Assembly (NCBI GenBank): GCA_965205945.1 | Contig: CBDBIB010000003.1 | Location: 224,001-288,000 of the forward strand | Direction of reading: 5' to 3' | DNA: 64,000 bases | Origin: Bdellovibrionales bacterium | GTDB taxonomy: Bacteria; Bdellovibrionota; Bdellovibrionia; Bdellovibrionales; UBA1609 | Shown here: positions 4,864 through 41,047 of the stretch, piece after piece | How the letters are laid out: each line of letters begins with the position of its first letter | How positions within the stretch are numbered: the stretch's first letter is position 1 | Program-made: the position numbers and the translations under genes | Notes under the pieces: model-generated | Databases searched by the model: none | What the model was told of the DNA's origin: nothing | The model's input: only the letters and a program-made list of their open reading frames with translations

Positions 4864-6069
4864 ATGATTAAAACAACTGCTTCTAGAAAACCTTCTTTAT
4901 TAGTTTTGTTTCTTGTTGTTCTTATTGATCTTATCGGTTTTGGCATGATACTCCCGCTCATTCCTTTTTTAGGAAAAAGCACTGGGGTGGCAGCTCCTAT
5001 GGTTGGTCTTCTTATGTCTATTTATTCGATTATGCAGTTTTTATTCTCTCCTTTTTGGGGGGGGATAAGTGATCGTTTTGGTAGAAGGCCTGTTTTGCTT
5101 TTGAGTATTTTAGGTGCTTCAGTTTCACATATAGCATTTGCTTTTACTACAAGTTACTGGGCTTTATTTTTAACTAGAATGTTTGCAGGTTTTTTCAGTG
5201 CTAATATTTCAACAGCAATGGCATCAGCTGCAGATTTATCCGATGAAAAAAATCGAACTCAAACTATGGGGCTTATTGGGGCAGCTTTTGGTTTAGGTTT
5301 TGTATTAGGGCCGTTTTTAGGTGCACAAGGTTCTGTATTTGGAAAAAGTTTTGGATTTGGTGATCAGTTCTCTTCTTTTTTGGCTGGGATTTTGTGTCTA
5401 TTAAATTTTATTTTTTGTTTTTTTGTTTTTAAAGAAACTCTTAAAGAAAAGCAAAATACTTTAAAAATAAATTTTAAAAAACTAAATCCGTTTTCAATTT
5501 TAAAAAATGTGAGCAGTACTTTAAAAAATGCTATTCTTTTATTTTTCGCAGCAACGATGGCCTTAGCTATTATTGAAATAGTTTTGTTCTACGCTGTAAA
5601 AGAGCAGTTTAATTGGGGCTATCAAAAAGCCGCTCTGGGCTTTGCTGTAGTTGGTTTAGTCATGGCTGTTACCCAGGGTGGTATTATCAGGCCTTTAAAG
5701 AAAAGACTTTCGGAAATTCAAATCATCTGTATTGGAGGTGTTTTATTCTGCCTAGGTTTACAGGGTGCGTTTTTATTCTCAAGCCTTTTTTTATTTGGAA
5801 GCTCTATTTTACTTATGAGTTTAGGCTACGCATTATTAAACCCGGCTTTAAATGGTTTTATAAGCCTTCAATCAAGTAAAAATTCTCAAGGTCAAATTTT
5901 TGGTGTTACTCATGGGTTTTCAGCCTTATCTAGAATCATAGGCCCCATATTAGGAACTTATATTCTTCAAGAGTACACTGTTAAAACTCCCTTTTTACTA
6001 TCTTCTATCCTTATAGGACTTTGTCTTACAGCTTTTTTTATCTTTATTTCAAAAAATGTTTTAAAATAA
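4864..6069 (+). CDS. MFS transporter, TetA/DHA1 family
   Basis: DLIGFGMILP, motif A GGISDRFGRRPVL, motif C GAAFGLGFVLGP; about 12 TM segments. Confidence 0.92.
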   Translation: MIKTTASRKPSLLVLFLVVLIDLIGFGMILPLIPFLGKSTGVAAPMVGLLMSIYSIMQFLFSPFWGGISDRFGRRPVLLLSILGASVSHIAFAFTTSYWALFLTRMFAGFFSANISTAMASAADLSDEKNRTQTMGLIGAAFGLGFVLGPFLGAQGSVFGKSFGFGDQFSSFLAGILCLLNFIFCFFVFKETLKEKQNTLKINFKKLNPFSILKNVSSTLKNAILLFFAATMALAIIEIVLFYAVKEQFNWGYQKAALGFAVVGLVMAVTQGGIIRPLKKRLSEIQIICIGGVLFCLGLQGAFLFSSLFLFGSSILLMSLGYALLNPALNGFISLQSSKNSQGQIFGVTHGFSALSRIIGPILGTYILQEYTVKTPFLLSSILIGLCLTAFFIFISKNVLK

Positions 6070-6248
6070 GAATATATGATGATGTAAAGGAAGGGAGCTC
6101 TGGGGTTAAACTTATATGTTTAAATAGTATTTTTTTAAATGAGTTAATTAGGGTTAAAAATTGTTACCCATCTTACAGTCATTAAGAGCGCTATTATGAC
6201 TAATGTTTATAATAGGTTAGGTAAAGTTCTTTGTCATAACAAACAGAA

Positions 6249-6809
6249 CTAAAGGTCTAAGTCTGGTGCATCTTGAAGGTTTGAAACCTTAGGTTTTAAA
6301 TCTTTTAAATCCTTTTTAAGTTTTTGATCATCAATAATAGGATCTGGAATTGTTCTTTGCCCCTGTTCAAGCATTGAAATATGAGAGTTTAAAATAGCTT
6401 TTAAATTATTTTCAAATTGTAAACGAACTCTGCGAAGTTCAGAAATATCTTGATAGATACGTTTTAAAGAGTCCTTAGCGTCTCTTGTGATCATTTCAGC
6501 CTTATGGTGAGCATCACTAGTAATAAGTTTTGCCTCTTTATTTGAATCATCTTGAATTCGCGTCGACATTTTTGTTGCGTTAGCTAAAGTCTTTCGTAAA
6601 AGATCTTCTCTTTCTTGAAACTCTTGGAGTTTAACTTCAACTTGCTTAAGGTTTTTTGTCATATCTTGATAGTTTTCAAAATTTTGCTCAAGGCTTCTAA
6701 CTACTTTTCTTAAAAATACGTTGACCTCAACAGGATCAAATCCTCTAAAAACTTTTGAAAATTTCTTGGTATTGATTGAATTAATAATTTCAAAAAAGTT
6801 TGATTTCAA
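6249..6809 (-). CDS. divIVA: DivIVA domain protein
   Basis: N-terminal KKFSKVFRGFDPVEVNVFL followed by coiled coil; TTG start at 6809 with AGGAGG RBS at 6817-6822 (ORF track start 6869). Confidence 0.88.
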   Translation of the reverse strand: MKSNFFEIINSINTKKFSKVFRGFDPVEVNVFLRKVVRSLEQNFENYQDMTKNLKQVEVKLQEFQEREDLLRKTLANATKMSTRIQDDSNKEAKLITSDAHHKAEMITRDAKDSLKRIYQDISELRRVRLQFENNLKAILNSHISMLEQGQRTIPDPIIDDQKLKKDLKDLKPKVSNLQDAPDLDL

Positions 6810-7133
6810 TTTAAAGCCTCCTAACTCACTGTTAATATGAGAACATATTAAAACCCTTATAGGCAACAATTTTAAAATTGATAAAACTCTTTATAGAGGC
6901 GGTGCGTCTTTGGTCTGTTCTTATTTTAATCAGATAAAGGGCTTAAAGAAGACACTGTATTTTTAGATATTAAAGAGTCTTTAGAAAAAAATATTAGACT
7001 TAAATTTTATTCATCAGGCTTTTAAAAAAGATAAAGAGAATAAGGAGTAGATTAGATGTAAGTCTAGTTTATAGGTTTTGCTTAAGTTAAGTTTTAACTA
7101 ATGAGAAAAGAAAGTAAAAAAAATTAGTTTATT

Positions 7134-8120
7134 TTATAAGCTTAACTTATTATCGATTTTATTTTGAATCGCTTGAAGCACACGTCTCGTTTTTAAACTT
7201 ATGTAAAGTTCTTCATTAACAAGAGTCTTTAATTCTAGACTAATTGTAGACATTGGCACCATATAATTAAAATTACTCCACATACTGTCCGTACTTAATG
7301 AAACCAAACTTTTACTAGCATTTGTTTTAGGGTATTTACCCGTCCATAAAACACCCACTAAACCTGAGTTTTGATCAAAAACAGGGGCTCCTGAGTCCCC
7401 ATGCTTACCATCACATCCAATTGGCAAAGACCATGAAAGTATTTTATTGGATGTTTCCTTACTCACACTGCTATCTAGATCTTTAAGATATCGGCTAGTA
7501 TCTGCTAACAACATACAATCTTTACTGTTGTCTATAAACCAATTAAAATTAAAATTTGGCATCAAGCGTTCTATTGTAATCATTTTTAAAGCCGCACCTG
7601 TTACTAAATTTTCATTTGAGAATTGAGCAGGGATCAGCTTATCAAAAGCATCGTCATGATTGGAGTTTATTTCAAAAAATAATATATCATTTTTTTTGAG
7701 TTGAAAACTCCAGCCAGAACAATAAAAATATAGATTTAAACCCTTAGGTTTAGCAATAAAACCTATCTCATCTTGACAAGAAGATAACTTATTATAGGTA
7801 TGTGCGGCTGTCATAACTAAATGTTTACCTTCAATTTTACCTATATAAGTTCCAATGCCTACCGCACCCATGCCGTGTCTATAAAGTTGAAAGATCTGTC
7901 CAGCAGTGTTGCTTCTATCTATAAGTATTTGACGATCCCAGTTTTGACCAATTTGATAAGGGTTTTTTCTTGGAGTAGAGTCTTTTTTAACAGCTTTTTC
8001 CTCTATATTTTTTAAACGGTTAATATTTTTAGTAAATACTTGGCTTTGGTATCCATTACATCCTATTAATGAGTAAAAAAAAGCTATAAAAAAGAGTGTG
8101 TTAAAGTATTTTTTATCCAT
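7134..8120 (-). CDS. Trypsin-like serine protease, predicted lipoprotein
   Basis: Lipobox-like LIGC; catalytic motifs MTAAHT, NDILFF, GDSGAPV. Confidence 0.8.
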   Translation of the reverse strand: MDKKYFNTLFFIAFFYSLIGCNGYQSQVFTKNINRLKNIEEKAVKKDSTPRKNPYQIGQNWDRQILIDRSNTAGQIFQLYRHGMGAVGIGTYIGKIEGKHLVMTAAHTYNKLSSCQDEIGFIAKPKGLNLYFYCSGWSFQLKKNDILFFEINSNHDDAFDKLIPAQFSNENLVTGAALKMITIERLMPNFNFNWFIDNSKDCMLLADTSRYLKDLDSSVSKETSNKILSWSLPIGCDGKHGDSGAPVFDQNSGLVGVLWTGKYPKTNASKSLVSLSTDSMWSNFNYMVPMSTISLELKTLVNEELYISLKTRRVLQAIQNKIDNKLSL

Positions 8121-8122
8121 GG

Positions 8123-9085
8123 TTAGATCGTTAATAAGTTATTAGTTTGAGTAGATTGTTTAGATTCGAATTCAGCCATACAAGCTTCTGGATTTTCATC
8201 AATCTGACATGCAAATGCTACAATCTCTAGTGTATACCAATCTTCTACACAAGTATAAGTCATGGGTATAAAAAGATCCCTATTTACTGTCCTTATGACT
8301 TTTCTTAAATAGTTTCTAATGCCCCTGCCATTGTATCTTGCTATACCTCCTGGTCTAGATCCGGGTATTATATAACCTCCTGCTATGGCAGCGTTGAATT
8401 TTAGGAAAATAGCTGATGCTAAAATATCCACATGCATTGCGGTTGCTTTTTGAAAAACTATCTTTAAATTTTTATGAGAGCGGTTCATAACATTATAAAA
8501 TAACTCTTCATTGCCAGGCCCTTCAGAGCCATCAACTATTCCATCATAACTTTCGTAACAAGATTTAACCATATTCTCCATGGCTTTTGTACTTATAGAG
8601 CTTGCAGTGTCAAGTTTTCCCTTAGGTCTACTCTTAAGTTTTAACTGTAATTTTATTGAATCGATTGCGGCACCTGTAAATTGACCACAACCTGAATCTC
8701 CACCTTTTCCAAGACGAGATTTACAATATAGTGACTCATTTCCAATAATTCCTGCAAACCATTTAAAATCATTTCCTGTGCAATCAGAAGCCCATATAAT
8801 AGCTTTTGCAATCTGTTTAGTAGTATAGTTGTCTACACCAGAATGATATTTTTTAATTGCGCTGTTAACAACAGCTACTCTTTGTTCTTTTGTGTATTGT
8901 TCATTTTCTGGTTCCGTTAAATTTGATATGAAAGTAGAACGTGTTTTTGAATTCATCTGCCATGCAGCATTATGTAATGTGGGTTTATTACATATCATTT
9001 TTGGAGAAAACTTAGCCACACTTAAAGAGGAAATCATTAATGTTATCATGCCCAATACTGTAGAAGCTATTCTTATGGTAATCAC
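8123..9085 (-). CDS. Secreted protein with divergent lysozyme-like/lytic transglycosylase motifs
   Basis: GTG start at 9085 with AAGGAG RBS (ORF track start 9151); signal peptide; IIGNES...GCGQFT...ASAIFLK...ARYNG parallel the SLT ES, GLMQ and AYN motifs. Confidence 0.55.
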   Translation of the reverse strand: MITIRIASTVLGMITLMISSLSVAKFSPKMICNKPTLHNAAWQMNSKTRSTFISNLTEPENEQYTKEQRVAVVNSAIKKYHSGVDNYTTKQIAKAIIWASDCTGNDFKWFAGIIGNESLYCKSRLGKGGDSGCGQFTGAAIDSIKLQLKLKSRPKGKLDTASSISTKAMENMVKSCYESYDGIVDGSEGPGNEELFYNVMNRSHKNLKIVFQKATAMHVDILASAIFLKFNAAIAGGYIIPGSRPGGIARYNGRGIRNYLRKVIRTVNRDLFIPMTYTCVEDWYTLEIVAFACQIDENPEACMAEFESKQSTQTNNLLTI

Positions 9086-36533: not shown

Positions 36534-37523
36534 CCAGCATATGCACTTGACTACACTAACAGGGTATTTTAGACATATCAGTCTTAAAGTATCCTAAAAA
36601 CCTACGAGAATTTGATCAAATTTTTAAAGATGATGACGCTTGCTTGGCTTTTCTTAAGGAGCAGCGTTGGGGTAAAGACTTTAAATGCCAGGCCTGTGGC
36701 AACAACACATACTGGTTAATTTCAACTAGACTTTGCAAATGTAAAACTTGTCTTTTTGCAAATTCAGTCAAAGTTGGTTCTATTTTTGAGCCCTCAAAAC
36801 TTCCGATTAAAACATGGTTCTATGCAATCTGGTGGATCACTGCACAAAAAAACTGGAGTAAGCGCACTAAGCCTTCAAAGAATTCTGGGTCTAGGAAGTT
36901 ATGGAGCAGCCTGGCTACTTCTACATAAAATTCGAAACGCTATGGTCCATGGGGACTAGAGTCTTTTGCGTGGAGAGGTTGAAGTTGATGAAGCTTTTAT
37001 TGGTGGTTTTAGGTCTAAAAAGCGCGGTAGAGGAGCCGAAGGCAAAGAGCTTGTGGTGATTGCAGCTGAGTGCTCAGGAAAAAAGCGAGTTAGCAGAATC
37101 AGAATTCAAAGAGTTCCTGATGCTTCTACTGGAAACCTAGAAACATTTATTTTGGCAAATATAGAGCCTGGTTCGACCATCCATACTGATGGCTGGAAAA
37201 GTTATAATGATGTTGGAAGTTTAGGATACAAGCATTTGCCAAGAAAACCAGCGAGTGTAGATCCTGATGAATTGTTTCCGAGAATAAATACTGTAACAGC
37301 ACTTTTAAAAAGATGGTTGATGGGTACGCTCCATGGAAGATTGGACTCAAAACATATTAGATAGTTATTTTGAGGAGTTTATTTTTAGGCTTAACAGGAG
37401 AACATCTAAGGCGAGAGGTCTTTTATTCCAAAGAGTTATAGAAAACTCAATGCGTGTAGCTCCCACTCCCTACAAGGAAATAACGGCTAGAAAACGCTAA
37501 GTGTAGCTATGTGCATATGCTGG
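36534..37523 (+). mobile_element. IS1595-family insertion sequence, 990 bp, full length
   Basis: Terminal IRs CCAGCATATGCACTTGACTACACT (36534-36557) and AGTGTAGCTATGTGCATATGCTGG (37500-37523); 8-bp direct repeat TTATTTTA at 36526-36533 and 37524-37531. Confidence 0.95.
36576..37500 (+). pseudogene. IS1595 (ISXO2-like DDE) transposase pseudogene
   Basis: YPKNLREF, Zn ribbon CQAC..CKTC, EVDEAFIGG, IHTDGWKSY, YFEEFIFRLNRR; broken by a frameshift in an A-run near 36850 and TAG stops at 36957 and 37362. Confidence 0.92.
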
Positions 37524-37694: not shown

Positions 37695-38567
37695 ATGGGA
37701 CAGATTGTAGCAGGTTTACTAGCTCCACATCCACCACACTTAGTGTATGCAGAGAATCCAGAGCAGAATATTCCGCGGGCTGAATGTGGTTGGGAAAATC
37801 TACGTTGGGCTTATGAACGTTTAAGGAAAAGCTTAGCAGAACTAGAGTATGATACCATTGTTGTTCACTCTCCTCATTGGAGAACACAAATAGGAACTCA
37901 TTTTTTAGGAGTAAAACATTTTAAAAACCTTTCTGTAGATCCAATTTTTCCACATCTTTTTAGATATCATTATAATTTAAAAGTTGATGTGGAGTTGGCC
38001 AACAAACTTTGTAGTCAAGCTTTTAAAGCAGGGTTGATGACAAAGATGATGAAAAACCCAGATTTTAGGGTGGACTATGGTACAATTACTAGTTGTCATA
38101 TGGTGAATCCATTATGGGATAAGCCTATTGTTGGAATTTCTTCTAACGGAGCATCTAAGTACTATAGTATGGATGTCATGCAGGAGCAAATGGCTGTTTT
38201 AGGAAAAGCCACAGCTAAAGCTATTAAAGAATCTGATAAAAAAGTTATTCTTATTGCAAGCCACTCATTATCCCATCGTCATTATGTTAAAGAGGCAGAT
38301 CCACCAGAGGATATGTCAAAAGAACATGTGGATCATCATGGTCAGTATCTTTGGGATATGAAAATGATTGATCTTATGAAAAAAGGAGACGTTAAAGAAA
38401 TTTTTAATACTATTCCAGATTTTACTGAACAGACTAATGCTGAAACTGAAGCTGGTGGGCTTTCGTGGATGCTTCAAGCTATGGGTATGAAAAATATAAA
38501 AGCTCAAGTTCACGGTTATGGAACGGTTATTGGTACAGGCAATGCTGTTGTTGAATGGAGGTCTTAA
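37695..38567 (+). CDS. amnB: 2-aminophenol 1,6-dioxygenase beta (catalytic) subunit homolog, LigB family
   Basis: APHPPHLVYAENP.QN, WENLRWAYER, VHSPHW, SVDPIFP, FRVDYGTIT, LSH.H, PEDMSKE, GYGTVIGTGNAV match AmnB/CnbCb as recalled. Confidence 0.88.
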   Translation: MGQIVAGLLAPHPPHLVYAENPEQNIPRAECGWENLRWAYERLRKSLAELEYDTIVVHSPHWRTQIGTHFLGVKHFKNLSVDPIFPHLFRYHYNLKVDVELANKLCSQAFKAGLMTKMMKNPDFRVDYGTITSCHMVNPLWDKPIVGISSNGASKYYSMDVMQEQMAVLGKATAKAIKESDKKVILIASHSLSHRHYVKEADPPEDMSKEHVDHHGQYLWDMKMIDLMKKGDVKEIFNTIPDFTEQTNAETEAGGLSWMLQAMGMKNIKAQVHGYGTVIGTGNAVVEWRS

Positions 38568-39509
38568 ATGATTGATGAAAATTTTAAAGAAATACCTGAG
38601 CGCCCAGAAGTTTTAAAATCTTATGTGGTGCCAGGACTTCCTCACTTGCTACTTTGTCCTGAGAAAAAACCTGAGTGGCAAAGATTAAACGATGCTTTTA
38701 AAAAAGTAAAGGATGAGATTAAAGAGTTAAGCCCAGATGTGATTTTAATTTATTCAAGCTATTGGTTTAGTATATTAGGGCACCAGTTTCAAGCTAACCC
38801 AAACCCTAATTGGATTTTAGTTGATGAAGAGTGGCATGAACTAGGCTCTATTCCTTATGAAATGACCATTGATACAAGTTTTGCTTTAGAGAACAAGGCT
38901 TTTGCAGAAAAACGTGGTCTCCACACAAGAGCTATAAACTATGAGGGTTTTCCAATAGATACAGGGTCAGTGGTAGCATCAAAATTATTAAATCCAGATA
39001 ACAAATTTAAAACGGTAATTGTTTCATCAAATATATATTCTGATCGAGCTGAAACCGTAGTTTTAGCAAAATCATCTTTAGATACGCTAAAAAAACAAGG
39101 TAAAAAAGCTGTGGTGATTTTAGTCTCATCACTATCAAATCGTTATTTAGAAGAACCTTTGGATTTTAATAAGCCTGAAAGAATTCATTCACAAAAAGAT
39201 CAGGAGTGGAATTTAGAATTTTTAAAATTTTTGTCACAAGGTCGACTTGAGGACGCTTCACAGTTATCAAGGCAATTTCATAAAGAAGCTAGAGTAACTA
39301 AAAAAGTAGTGGCTTTTAAGCCTTATTGGTGGCTTTCAACAATGATGGGCGAGACTAATACTTTAAAAGGTGAGGTTATGGCATACGAGCCTATTCATGG
39401 AACGGGCGCTGCAATTGTATCTTTTACTCCAGCAGGTATAAGTGAAGGTGGTTTAGAGTTTGATGAAGAGGATGCTGAATTTTATAAAGGAAACCGTAAT
39501 GTCCTCTGA
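38568..39509 (+). CDS. amnA: 2-aminophenol 1,6-dioxygenase alpha (non-catalytic) subunit homolog
   Basis: LigB fold; VPGLPHL, PDVILIYS, VDEEW, GFPIDTG, GTGAA; starts immediately after the amnB stop. Confidence 0.8.
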   Translation: MIDENFKEIPERPEVLKSYVVPGLPHLLLCPEKKPEWQRLNDAFKKVKDEIKELSPDVILIYSSYWFSILGHQFQANPNPNWILVDEEWHELGSIPYEMTIDTSFALENKAFAEKRGLHTRAINYEGFPIDTGSVVASKLLNPDNKFKTVIVSSNIYSDRAETVVLAKSSLDTLKKQGKKAVVILVSSLSNRYLEEPLDFNKPERIHSQKDQEWNLEFLKFLSQGRLEDASQLSRQFHKEARVTKKVVAFKPYWWLSTMMGETNTLKGEVMAYEPIHGTGAAIVSFTPAGISEGGLEFDEEDAEFYKGNRNVL

Positions 39510-40614
39510 TACTGAATATTATGATATAAAAAATTTAAAAACTTTTCCAAAGAGTCCACTTGGAGAAAAAATTAAAGGGCTTTCATCAGGGCATGATGTT
39601 GAGTGGGTGCCCTTAGTTGATTTTAGAAGAAATGGCGTTAGTGAGAACACAATTCACGGTGCTATATCTTGGTTTTCAGGGGATAAAACAATTCATTCTT
39701 TTGGGGGGAATGTTCTTTGTTATGGTAGATCTATGATGAAGCCTTTTTACATAAAAGCTTTTCAAAAAGAACTTGCTAATACAACAAGCTGGAAACAAAA
39801 AACTATATCTATTTCATCACACAATGGAACAGCAGAACATGTATCCTGTGCTCAATCACTACTTCCTAAAGGGGAGTGGGGTTTAATGCTCACACCCCTT
39901 GATTTACCTCTTGTTCAGTTTGGAAGGCAAGTTAGACGTCCAAGAAGATGGCTTAATAACTCCTCAGGTCATCATGCTGCTCTTTTAAAAGGTTTAAGGT
40001 TAAAGGGTATAAATAGGGCAGGCTATATGCTACCAAATCATGAACTTTTTAAAGAATATTTAAAGGTCATGGGAAAATATTTAAATCAAGATGGCGCTAT
40101 TTATAAACCTAGGAGAGTAGCTCGTGATGGAGATGGTTTACCAACATGTGCAATGACAGTGGATGAGTTAGCAAAATGTTATGCGGCTTTGACCGTCGAT
40201 AAAGATAAGGATTGGATTTGGGAGGCTTTTTGTAAAGAACCTGATTTACTTGGAGGTTTTAATCGTTTAGACACAACGGTGATTAAATCTTGTAAAGGTA
40301 AAGTGATTGCTAAAGAAGGTGCTGATGGTCTTTTAGGTTTAGGTATCATTCATCCAGACTATCCAGGTGGATTAGGTGTGGTTATTAAGATTGCTCATGG
40401 CTGGAATCCTCAAGCAACTTGGTATGTGGCAAGAGCTATATTAGGTGTTTTAGGTTTTCAGCTTAGAAACCCTTATCCATTAAAAAGACAAAAAGCTTTT
40501 ATAGTAGAGGGGCTTGTTCCTCCACAGTATTTAAAAACTTTGGAAAAGATTTCTACCTGGGATGAATGGGATCCAGATCATGATCGTTGGTATTTTGAAG
40601 AAGATTTTTTATAG
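39499..40614 (+). CDS. Class 3 (Rhizobium etli-type, Asparaginase_II) hydrolase homolog with altered metal site
   Basis: RRNGVSE..IHG, RSMMKP, SSHNG, NNSSGHH, DGDG.P, IAKEGADG, VIKIAHG; ATG at 39499 with AAAGGA RBS. Confidence 0.8.
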   Translation: MSSDTEYYDIKNLKTFPKSPLGEKIKGLSSGHDVEWVPLVDFRRNGVSENTIHGAISWFSGDKTIHSFGGNVLCYGRSMMKPFYIKAFQKELANTTSWKQKTISISSHNGTAEHVSCAQSLLPKGEWGLMLTPLDLPLVQFGRQVRRPRRWLNNSSGHHAALLKGLRLKGINRAGYMLPNHELFKEYLKVMGKYLNQDGAIYKPRRVARDGDGLPTCAMTVDELAKCYAALTVDKDKDWIWEAFCKEPDLLGGFNRLDTTVIKSCKGKVIAKEGADGLLGLGIIHPDYPGGLGVVIKIAHGWNPQATWYVARAILGVLGFQLRNPYPLKRQKAFIVEGLVPPQYLKTLEKISTWDEWDPDHDRWYFEEDFL

Positions 40615-40630: not shown

Positions 40631-41047
40631 ATGTCGATTAATAGCGAAAAAGCACCAGAGCCTGTAGGTGCATATCCTCATGCAAAAAGAATAGGAGACC
40701 TGCTTTTCTTATCCGGTGTTGGCCCTAGAGTAAAGAATTCTAAAAAAATTCCAGGAGTAGAGATTTCATTAGATGGTGAAATTTTAAGTTATGATATTAA
40801 AATACAAACTCATGCAGTTATTAATAATATTAAATTAATTTTAGAATCTTCGGGTTTGGAATTAAAAGACTTAGTGGACTGTCAGTGTTTTTTAACAAAT
40901 ATGAAAAAAGATTTTAAAAAGTTTAATCAAGTTTATGCAGAGTATTTTTCAATAAAAAATGGTCCGTGTAGAACTACAGTAGAAATTGGCGCTTTACCAA
41001 CTCCAATTGCTGTTGAATTTAAGTGCATTGCTAAATTAAGAACGTAG
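40631..41047 (+). CDS. RidA family protein, 2-aminomuconate deaminase-like
   Basis: APEPVGAYPHA, LFLSGVGPR, PCRTTVE (catalytic Arg), LPTPIAVEFKCIA; ATG at 40631. Confidence 0.85.
   Translation: MSINSEKAPEPVGAYPHAKRIGDLLFLSGVGPRVKNSKKIPGVEISLDGEILSYDIKIQTHAVINNIKLILESSGLELKDLVDCQCFLTNMKKDFKKFNQVYAEYFSIKNGPCRTTVEIGALPTPIAVEFKCIAKLRT

Follow-up and report, generated by a model that had tools for sequence, protein, structure and literature searches.

The closest described relatives of the protein reported here are the class 3 asparaginases ReAV and ReAIV of Rhizobium etli (PDB 7os3, 9g66, 8cly), which carry two Ser-Lys tandems and, in ReAV, a zinc site of Cys135, Lys138 and Cys189. According to published accounts, the ReAV zinc is non-catalytic and anchors L-asparagine through its alpha-amino and alpha-carboxy groups (PMC12951835), Arg47 holds the substrate alpha-carboxylate (PMC12292245), C135A and C189A variants lose zinc and activity, and K138A lowers activity about 40-fold (PMC11024299). 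The three ligands are conserved at 99%, 97% and 99%, respectively, among ReAV orthologues (PMC11024299, section 4.1). Here we describe P0001, a 371-amino acid protein encoded at 39499..40614 (+) of a 64 000-nucleotide stretch (the window) from a Bdellovibrionales bacterium (assembly GCA_965205945.1, contig CBDBIB010000003.1, positions 224 001 to 288 000 of the forward strand). P0001 has the ReAV/ReAIV fold and its catalytic residues, replaces all three zinc ligands (Ser155, His158 and Asp212) and is encoded among genes for 2-aminophenol degradation. Our preferred reading, to which we give a probability of roughly one half, is that P0001 is catalytically active as a serine hydrolase with the class 3 asparaginase fold, belongs to a kynureninase-free tryptophan catabolism and splits an oxidized kynurenine into L-aspartate and 2-aminophenol.

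Degradation of 2-aminophenol is established for the amn/cnb clusters (AmnBACD; PDB 8ihg, 3vsg, 7txy, 6izh), in which the dioxygenase AmnBA, an aldehyde dehydrogenase (ALDH) and a RidA-type 2-aminomuconate deaminase cover the route from 2-aminophenol to 4-oxalocrotonate. To our knowledge, the described clusters are fed by nitro- or chloro-aromatics and contain no asparaginase-fold or luciferase-like gene. The gene set around P0001 and its relatives has the same amnB, amnA, ALDH and RidA-type deaminase genes, the archaeal ALDH matching 2-hydroxymuconic-semialdehyde dehydrogenase best, but it is linked to genes for tryptophan 2,3-dioxygenase (TDO) and the kynurenine formamidase KynB. A mechanistic parallel exists in Pseudomonas fluorescens ACB, where 4-hydroxyacetophenone monooxygenase and an aryl-ester hydrolase convert an aryl ketone to an aryl ester and then to a phenol, which is followed by ring cleavage. 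The monooxygenase–P0001 pair proposed below would resemble the ACB pair by analogy of mechanism only, since the latter consists of a type I Baeyer–Villiger monooxygenase and an esterase and acts on a non-amino-acid substrate. A full-text search, with subscription journals mostly outside its reach, brought up no publication that describes a conversion of kynurenine to 2-aminophenol or an amn cluster with an asparaginase-fold gene.

Results

P0001 combines a class 3 asparaginase fold with a remodelled zinc site

A Pfam scan of P0001 returned PF06089 (Asparaginase_II) at 1.4e-35, with 123 bits against a cut-off of 25, while an NCBIfam scan gave no match. Searching the PDB with phmmer placed ReAIV (8cly, 2.2e-12) and ReAV (7os3, 2.5e-9) at the top, with NNSSGHHA aligned to nnCSGKHa and DGDGLPT to DGCSIPT. 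The AlphaFold2 model (59 sequences) has a mean predicted local distance difference test score (pLDDT) of 92.1 and a predicted template-modelling score of 0.90. When this model was compared with the PDB by Foldseek, only ReAV/ReAIV chains reached E values of about 1e-18 (template-modelling score 0.66–0.74, 20–25% identity over the structural alignment); the lower matches, penicillin-binding proteins, beta-lactamases and glutaminases, all had E values above 4e-3. A preliminary description of this locus, made from the sequence alone, had proposed a class 3 asparaginase fold with a replaced zinc site. The fold is borne out by these searches, and the motifs quoted there (RSMMKP, SSHNG, NSSGHH, DGD, AKEGADG and an acidic tail) all lie in P0001 as stated.

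Alignment to ReAIV and ReAV showed that both Ser-Lys tandems are retained (all coordinates on the + strand). The motif RSMMKP (residues 77–82, 39727..39744) holds Arg77, Ser78 and Lys81, equivalent to ReAV Arg47, the nucleophile Ser48 and Lys51, with roles taken from the ReAV papers. Ser107, equivalent to ReAV Ser80, lies in SSHNG (residues 106–110) and forms the second tandem with Lys272 (ReAV Lys263) of AKEGADG (residues 271–277, 40309..40329). Equivalents of ReAV Arg47, His139, Tyr156 and Asp187 are all present. At the zinc site, NNSSGHH (residues 153–159, 39955..39975) has Ser155 for Cys135 and His158 for Lys138, followed by His159, which corresponds to His139, and DGDG (residues 210–213, 40126..40137) keeps Asp210, the counterpart of Asp187, and has Asp212 in place of the ligand Cys189. 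Because the Cys/Lys/Cys zinc site, a defining feature, is missing, we do not file P0001 as an ordinary class 3 asparaginase. It further differs from ReAV and ReAIV by a conserved acidic, Trp-rich C-terminal tail, TWDEWDPDHDRWYFEEDFL (residues 353–371, 40555..40611; model pLDDT 57–76), with the motif [PT]W[DE][DE]WDP..DR[WY], which reads TWDEWDPDHDRW at residues 353–364.

We then compared 200 aligned rows of full-length relatives, made up of the query itself, 159 proteins encoded at genomic loci and 40 representatives from databases. Ser78, Lys81, Ser107, Lys272, His159, Tyr176 and Asp210 are each invariant (200/200), and Arg77 is retained in 199. Positions 155/158/212 read Cys/Glu/Cys in 108 rows, Ser/His/Asp in 49 and Cys/Lys/Cys in 40, with Ser/Asn/Asp, Cys/Asn/Cys and Cys/Gln/Cys found once each. 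Ser155 was paired with Asp212 in 50/50 rows and Cys with Cys in 150/150. A Ser/His/Asp clade of 47 rows differs from 111 Cys-type relatives with the tail at eight positions (Tyr84, Asn153, Asn154, Ser155, His158, Asp212, Cys227 and Thr259). Five of the eight fall in the two zinc-site motifs; the site has been remodelled as a unit. Position 153 (39955-39957) is His in all 111 of these Cys-type relatives (H-x-C-S-G-E/K-H), and in the Cys/Glu/Cys forms this residue may serve as an additional ligand of the metal. The Ser/His/Asp clade has Asn-Asn at 153–154, as do ordinary ReAIV-type enzymes (NN in 119/120).

The preliminary description had left room for the possibility that such substitutions are common among ordinary class 3 asparaginases. 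As a sample of the latter we took the 120 best relatives of P0251, a protein that matches ReAIV at 5e-37. The ligands read Cys/Lys/Cys in 118 and Cys/Asn/Cys in two, and Ser or Asp at these sites was seen in 0/120. This agrees with the conservation reported in PMC11024299 and indicates that the substitutions are not common in ordinary class 3 enzymes.

The altered site could also be a broken one, leaving P0001 as a catalytically dead or regulatory subunit, and ReAV C135A and C189A are indeed inactive (PMC11024299). We consider loss of function extremely improbable, as the residues of both tandems, His159, Tyr176 and Asp210 are invariant, and the identical three replacements across the 47-row clade point to selection rather than decay. 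Given that the two ReAV variants are inactive, the natural variant must compensate somehow, and the fact that the clade holds strictly to these three residues argues that it does.

Since it is the amino-acid head of the substrate that zinc anchors in ReAV, the remodelled site would concern the head group and not the leaving group. Retention of Arg77 means that an aspartyl-type head group is still to be expected, and by analogy with ReAV a change at the head-group site fits a substrate that remains an aspartyl compound. Ser155, His158 and Asp212 most likely take over head-group anchoring, in concert with Arg77, His159 and Asp210, which are retained, and the Ser/His/Asp triad is probably a cysteine-free version of the ReAV zinc anchor. 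Two arrangements could achieve this. Without metal, Asp212 could bind the ammonium and His158 and Ser155 the carboxylate directly; alternatively, the harder ligands His158 and Asp212, perhaps with His159 or Asp210, could hold a metal.

P0001 relatives are linked to 2-aminophenol degradation genes in bacteria and archaea

Gene neighbourhoods were collected from 160 loci, 80 of close relatives and 80 of more distant relatives; the distant ones are 43–50% identical to the representative P0126, and such representatives are 33–52% identical to P0001. Among the close-relative loci, many of those from Bdellovibrionales show the order short-chain dehydrogenase/reductase (SDR), luciferase-like monooxygenase, ALDH, amnB, amnA, P0001 orthologue and RidA. 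Marine Group II loci have monooxygenase, P0001 orthologue and ALDH, with amnB and an amnA::RidA fusion a few kb off. The distant loci, from Acidobacteriota, Myxococcota, Planctomycetota, Thermoplasmatota and others, read SDR, monooxygenase, P0001 homologue, ALDH, amnB and amnA.

Linkage was then counted by site state in 159 loci, after dropping one with an open reading frame (ORF) below 280 amino acids. All 46 Ser/His/Asp loci carry an amnA-like gene, which lies immediately upstream of the hydrolase gene in every case, and RidA follows immediately in 41. Among the 101 Cys/Glu/Cys loci, amnB/amnA-like genes occur in 73, the monooxygenase in 88 and ALDH in 87; the corresponding numbers for the 12 Cys/Lys/Cys loci are 7, 12 and 11. 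The monooxygenase is immediately upstream of the hydrolase gene in 67/101 and 12/12 of these loci, respectively. The Ser/His/Asp state goes with a changed gene order. It does not define the job of the enzyme, because Cys/Glu/Cys and Cys/Lys/Cys orthologues share the same gene set. The earlier suggestion of a separate subfamily, probably other than plain asparaginases, is supported, and this subfamily co-occurs with amnAB, as the 46/46 linkage to amnA shows. The triad itself, which had been offered as the mark of that subfamily or its substrate, is not supported in this role, the same partners being found in the 101 Cys/Glu/Cys and 12 Cys/Lys/Cys loci. Nor is the Trp-rich tail a trait of the Ser/His/Asp form: within the crown clade it accompanies each of the three site states, and it is missing from the basal and ReAIV-like representatives of the 200-row set.

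The nearest Cys/Glu/Cys orthologues, uncharacterized proteins of Marine Group II archaea, Acidobacteriota, Myxococcota and others, share their tail and partner genes with P0001. Unlike P0001, they have both cysteine ligands, Glu where ReAV has its Lys ligand, and His at 153, and their gene stands between monooxygenase and ALDH, whereas that of P0001 stands between amnA and RidA. All 33 Marine Group II orthologues of the close set, 67–69% identical to P0001, have CSGEH and DGC, and identity across domains is 67–77%.

These data bear on whether P0001 is simply an ordinary L-asparaginase, working with a different metal or with no metal, whose gene just happens to accompany the amn genes. The ReAV/ReAIV fold with all its catalytic residues would suit such an enzyme, as would the fact that P0001 is the only PF06089 gene in its genome. 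We nevertheless hold this to be improbable: bacteria and archaea alike have kept the linkage, the cross-domain identity points to a tightly constrained specific role, the triad is absent from the ReAIV-like sample, and loss of either cysteine abolishes the asparaginase activity of ReAV (PMC11024299). The gene context, tied to amn and tryptophan genes instead of asparagine use, also argues against L-asparagine hydrolysis as the physiological reaction.

Several further features of the loci were noted. Fusions of amnA and RidA (LigB plus Ribonuc_L-PSP, 477–529 amino acids) occur in Marine Group II, for example at L055:826-2259 (-) and L070:5331-6920 (+). An alpha/beta hydrolase of the BD-FAE/Abhydrolase_3 type lies beside the SDR at L043:1066-2702 (+), with the same genes in other Marine Group II loci, and could be a eukaryote-type kynurenine formamidase. 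Downstream of RidA, a family-5 solute-binding protein (SBP_bac_5) follows the gene set in 8 Bdellovibrionales loci, a putative M1-like protein of about 940 amino acids (a label given without a Pfam check) in 11 loci, and a confirmed M1 aminopeptidase in 8 others (such as L002); loci with genes downstream of RidA include L008, L009, L014, L016, L020, L021, L023 and L026. The SBP_bac_5 and M1-type neighbours fit peptide or amino-acid scavenging.

The gene set is linked to genes for tryptophan degradation

In the genome containing the window (1.87 Mb, 97% complete), TDO and KynB are neighbours located some 60 kb upstream of the window, KynB being a separate gene of the PF04199 cyclase type (G000:C3:162398-162838). 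A search of this genome for kynureninase gave no match. The search for 3-hydroxyanthranilate dioxygenase (PF06052) returned nothing from the genome or from its own controls. AmnB, AmnA, the semialdehyde dehydrogenase and the RidA-type deaminase of amn-type clusters are all present. P0001 falls in a provisional monooxygenase-linked PF06089 clade, having amnB, amnA and RidA adjacent and SDR-monooxygenase-ALDH elsewhere in the genome, on contig 1, where the monooxygenase gene spans 561402-562625. Among the 160 loci, Pfam-confirmed TDO (PF03301) was found in 12 and KynB-type cyclase (PF04199) in 30, on the strand of the gene set in all such loci except for one TDO; only two such loci come from the close-relative set.

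An amide hydrolase linked to tryptophan genes might be a third type of N-formylkynurenine formamidase, a function that had also been guessed for P0001 in the preliminary description. This guess is disfavoured, and we rate it as very improbable, by the separate KynB-type formamidase that stands beside TDO in the window's genome and in the 30 loci; P0001 itself has no cyclase-family domain (KynB, PF04199), PF06089 being its sole Pfam match. Archaeal loci also carry the alpha/beta hydrolase mentioned above. In addition, P0133, a database representative of 498 amino acids, has an asparaginase-fold domain of the Cys/Lys/Cys type fused to a KynB-type cyclase (PF04199, 9.5e-17), and fusions usually join different steps.

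We also surveyed the window's genome together with 40 related ones (41 in all), which are kin and not independent, so that the counts describe a pattern rather than a statistic: a strong P0001 orthologue was found in 17, amnB in 17 and both in 16. TDO was present in 16 of the 17 genomes with a strong orthologue. Kynureninase scored above the curated cut-off in 4/41 genomes, all four of which lack both the orthologue and amnB. The orthologue of G019 contains one in-frame TGA and the match in G004 has one TAA in a 724-amino acid frame; these may be pseudogenes or sequencing errors.

A two-enzyme replacement of kynureninase is proposed

Kynurenine can be viewed as a beta-aspartyl aryl ketone, and 2-aminophenol is the substrate of AmnBA. 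In the route that we propose, TDO and KynB would produce kynurenine, and the luciferase-like flavin monooxygenase would carry out a Baeyer–Villiger oxidation of the aryl ketone. The product would be a beta-aspartyl 2-aminophenyl ester, and rearrangement of this ester can yield N4-(2-hydroxyphenyl)asparagine. P0001 would then cleave the beta-aspartyl compound by means of Ser78/Lys81 and Ser107/Lys272, releasing L-aspartate and 2-aminophenol, and AmnBA, ALDH and the RidA deaminase would open the ring and remove the amine. The monooxygenase has a weak match to PF00296, and its model (pLDDT 88.8) shows the bacterial-luciferase TIM-barrel fold, with luciferases, RutA, SsuD, RslO1 and the type II Baeyer–Villiger 3,6-diketocamphane monooxygenase (4uwm) among its structural neighbours. 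Of the functions suggested earlier, a substitute for kynureninase comes closest to this route, with the correction that P0001 would be only one half of a two-enzyme replacement, the other half being the monooxygenase.

Within the same tryptophan/aminophenol set, P0001 might instead act on another amide, ester or lactam, such as a hydroxylation product of kynurenine or N-formylkynurenine, or an amide or cyclized product that arises after ring cleavage. Linkage fixes the pathway and not the step, the Ser/His/Asp gene sits after amnA and before RidA and not next to the monooxygenase, the SDR has no assigned role, and a fold search cannot name the chemistry of the monooxygenase. However, the tightest pairing in Cys-type loci is that of monooxygenase and hydrolase, and a Bdellovibrionales locus (L167, see below) holds this pair away from amn genes. 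Moreover, AmnBA, ALDH and RidA take 2-aminophenol to 4-oxalocrotonate without an amidase, and retention of Arg77 favours a substrate with an amino-acid head. We regard a substrate of this kind as possible but on the doubtful side.

Besides the kinship of the surveyed genomes, several points weigh against cleavage of an oxidized kynurenine by P0001. The fold match of the monooxygenase cannot separate Baeyer–Villiger oxidation from hydroxylation or other chemistry, and it is solely gene content from which we infer the substrate, the Baeyer–Villiger step and aspartate as a product. The conserved SDR is left unexplained by the proposed route. That the new site is a working replacement is an assumption, given the inactive C135A and C189A variants of ReAV. 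In the survey, 11/41 genomes have TDO and lack both kynureninase above the cut-off and a strong P0001 orthologue, and the complete genome G027 has a 59%-identical orthologue and no amnB match.

Two other schemes were considered and rejected. One, in which the ring of 3-hydroxykynurenine is cleaved and aspartate then leaves by a retro-Claisen reaction, was dropped because amnB matches true 2-aminophenol dioxygenases at about 4e-112; it is also countered by the monooxygenase–hydrolase pairing, which fits an earlier step. A Rut-like pyrimidine pathway (luciferase-like monooxygenase, amidohydrolase and RidA) was set aside because RutC and RutA gave weak or generic matches and the genes are linked to TDO and KynB.

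The Ser..Asp site state occurs in two positions of the tree

We built trees with FastTree on the 200 rows and with a quick and a careful IQ-TREE run on 70 rows, and all three place the Ser..Asp state in two positions. The main Ser/His/Asp clade (47 rows, support 100) is nested in the Cys/Glu/Cys crown beside the Marine Group II clade, and an earlier-branching small clade consists of P0122, P0131, P0139 and L167. No tree joining both groups was found among 200 bootstrap trees (0/200). A tree constrained to a single Ser..Asp clade was nevertheless 2.84 log units better than the careful IQ-TREE tree (p-AU 0.536) and 41.6 log units better than the quick one (p-AU 0.897). An independent double origin is therefore not established, as a single clade passes the approximately unbiased (AU) test. 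The small clade is tail-less and retains His153, which leans towards two origins.

L167 itself (5858-8927, +), from a Bdellovibrionales metagenome-assembled genome, encodes a tail-less Ser/His/Asp form that adjoins a luciferase-like monooxygenase (coordinates 8000 and 8001). The only other partner of this pair is a vitamin-uptake-type transporter (Vut_1), and no amn genes were found within 7 kb of it.

Gene structure and neighbouring genes in the window

The P0001 reading frame is free of stops, while the reverse strand has many. Its ATG at 39499 is preceded by AAAGGAAAC and gives an 11-base overlap with the upstream gene, whose stop ends at 39509; a longer frame from a TTG at 39460 is possible. 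A scan for promoters and terminators gave 14 promoter-like sites against 18.3 expected from shuffles, that is, no better than shuffled sequence.

Upstream lie genes for the two subunits of a 2-aminophenol 1,6-dioxygenase: an amnB-like catalytic beta subunit (37695..38567, +; full-length PDB matches 8ihg_A at 4.3e-112 and 3vsg_B at 6.5e-106; Pfam LigB) and an amnA-like alpha subunit (38568..39509, +; 7txy_A at 1.6e-44 and 3vsg_A at 1.5e-43). Downstream follows a RidA-family, 2-aminomuconate deaminase-like protein (40631..41047, +), with the 2-aminomuconate deaminase 6izh_A as best PDB match (4.8e-23). Its ORF is open from 40562, the Ribonuc_L-PSP domain begins at residue 29 of this long ORF, and the ATG at 40631 is the presumed start. 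Directly upstream of amnB, at 36644-37364 (+), we noticed an IS1595-family transposase broken into two ORF fragments, the first with the zinc ribbon and the second with the DDE domain. This remnant may mark the break of the seven-gene set, which is split in the window's genome.

Discussion

P0001 is a well-defined natural variant of a known fold, and its pathway context is probably new. The zinc site is reported as almost invariant and its cysteines as necessary in ReAV (PMC11024299), yet a large natural clade replaces all three ligands and keeps every catalytic residue. Together with their close cysteine-keeping orthologues, the members of this clade form a natural experiment on the role of the metal in this fold.

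The broadest version of our proposal would be that predatory bacteria and abundant marine archaea share a two-enzyme replacement of kynureninase, in which the two-cysteine zinc anchor has been swapped for a cysteine-free Ser/His/Asp site, possibly as an adaptation to the thiol-reactive quinone-imine chemistry of the product 2-aminophenol. We offer this tentatively and think it unlikely to hold in full. The clade is tied to what appears to be an undescribed, kynureninase-free degradation of tryptophan in Bdellovibrio-like predators, Acidobacteriota and Marine Group II archaea.

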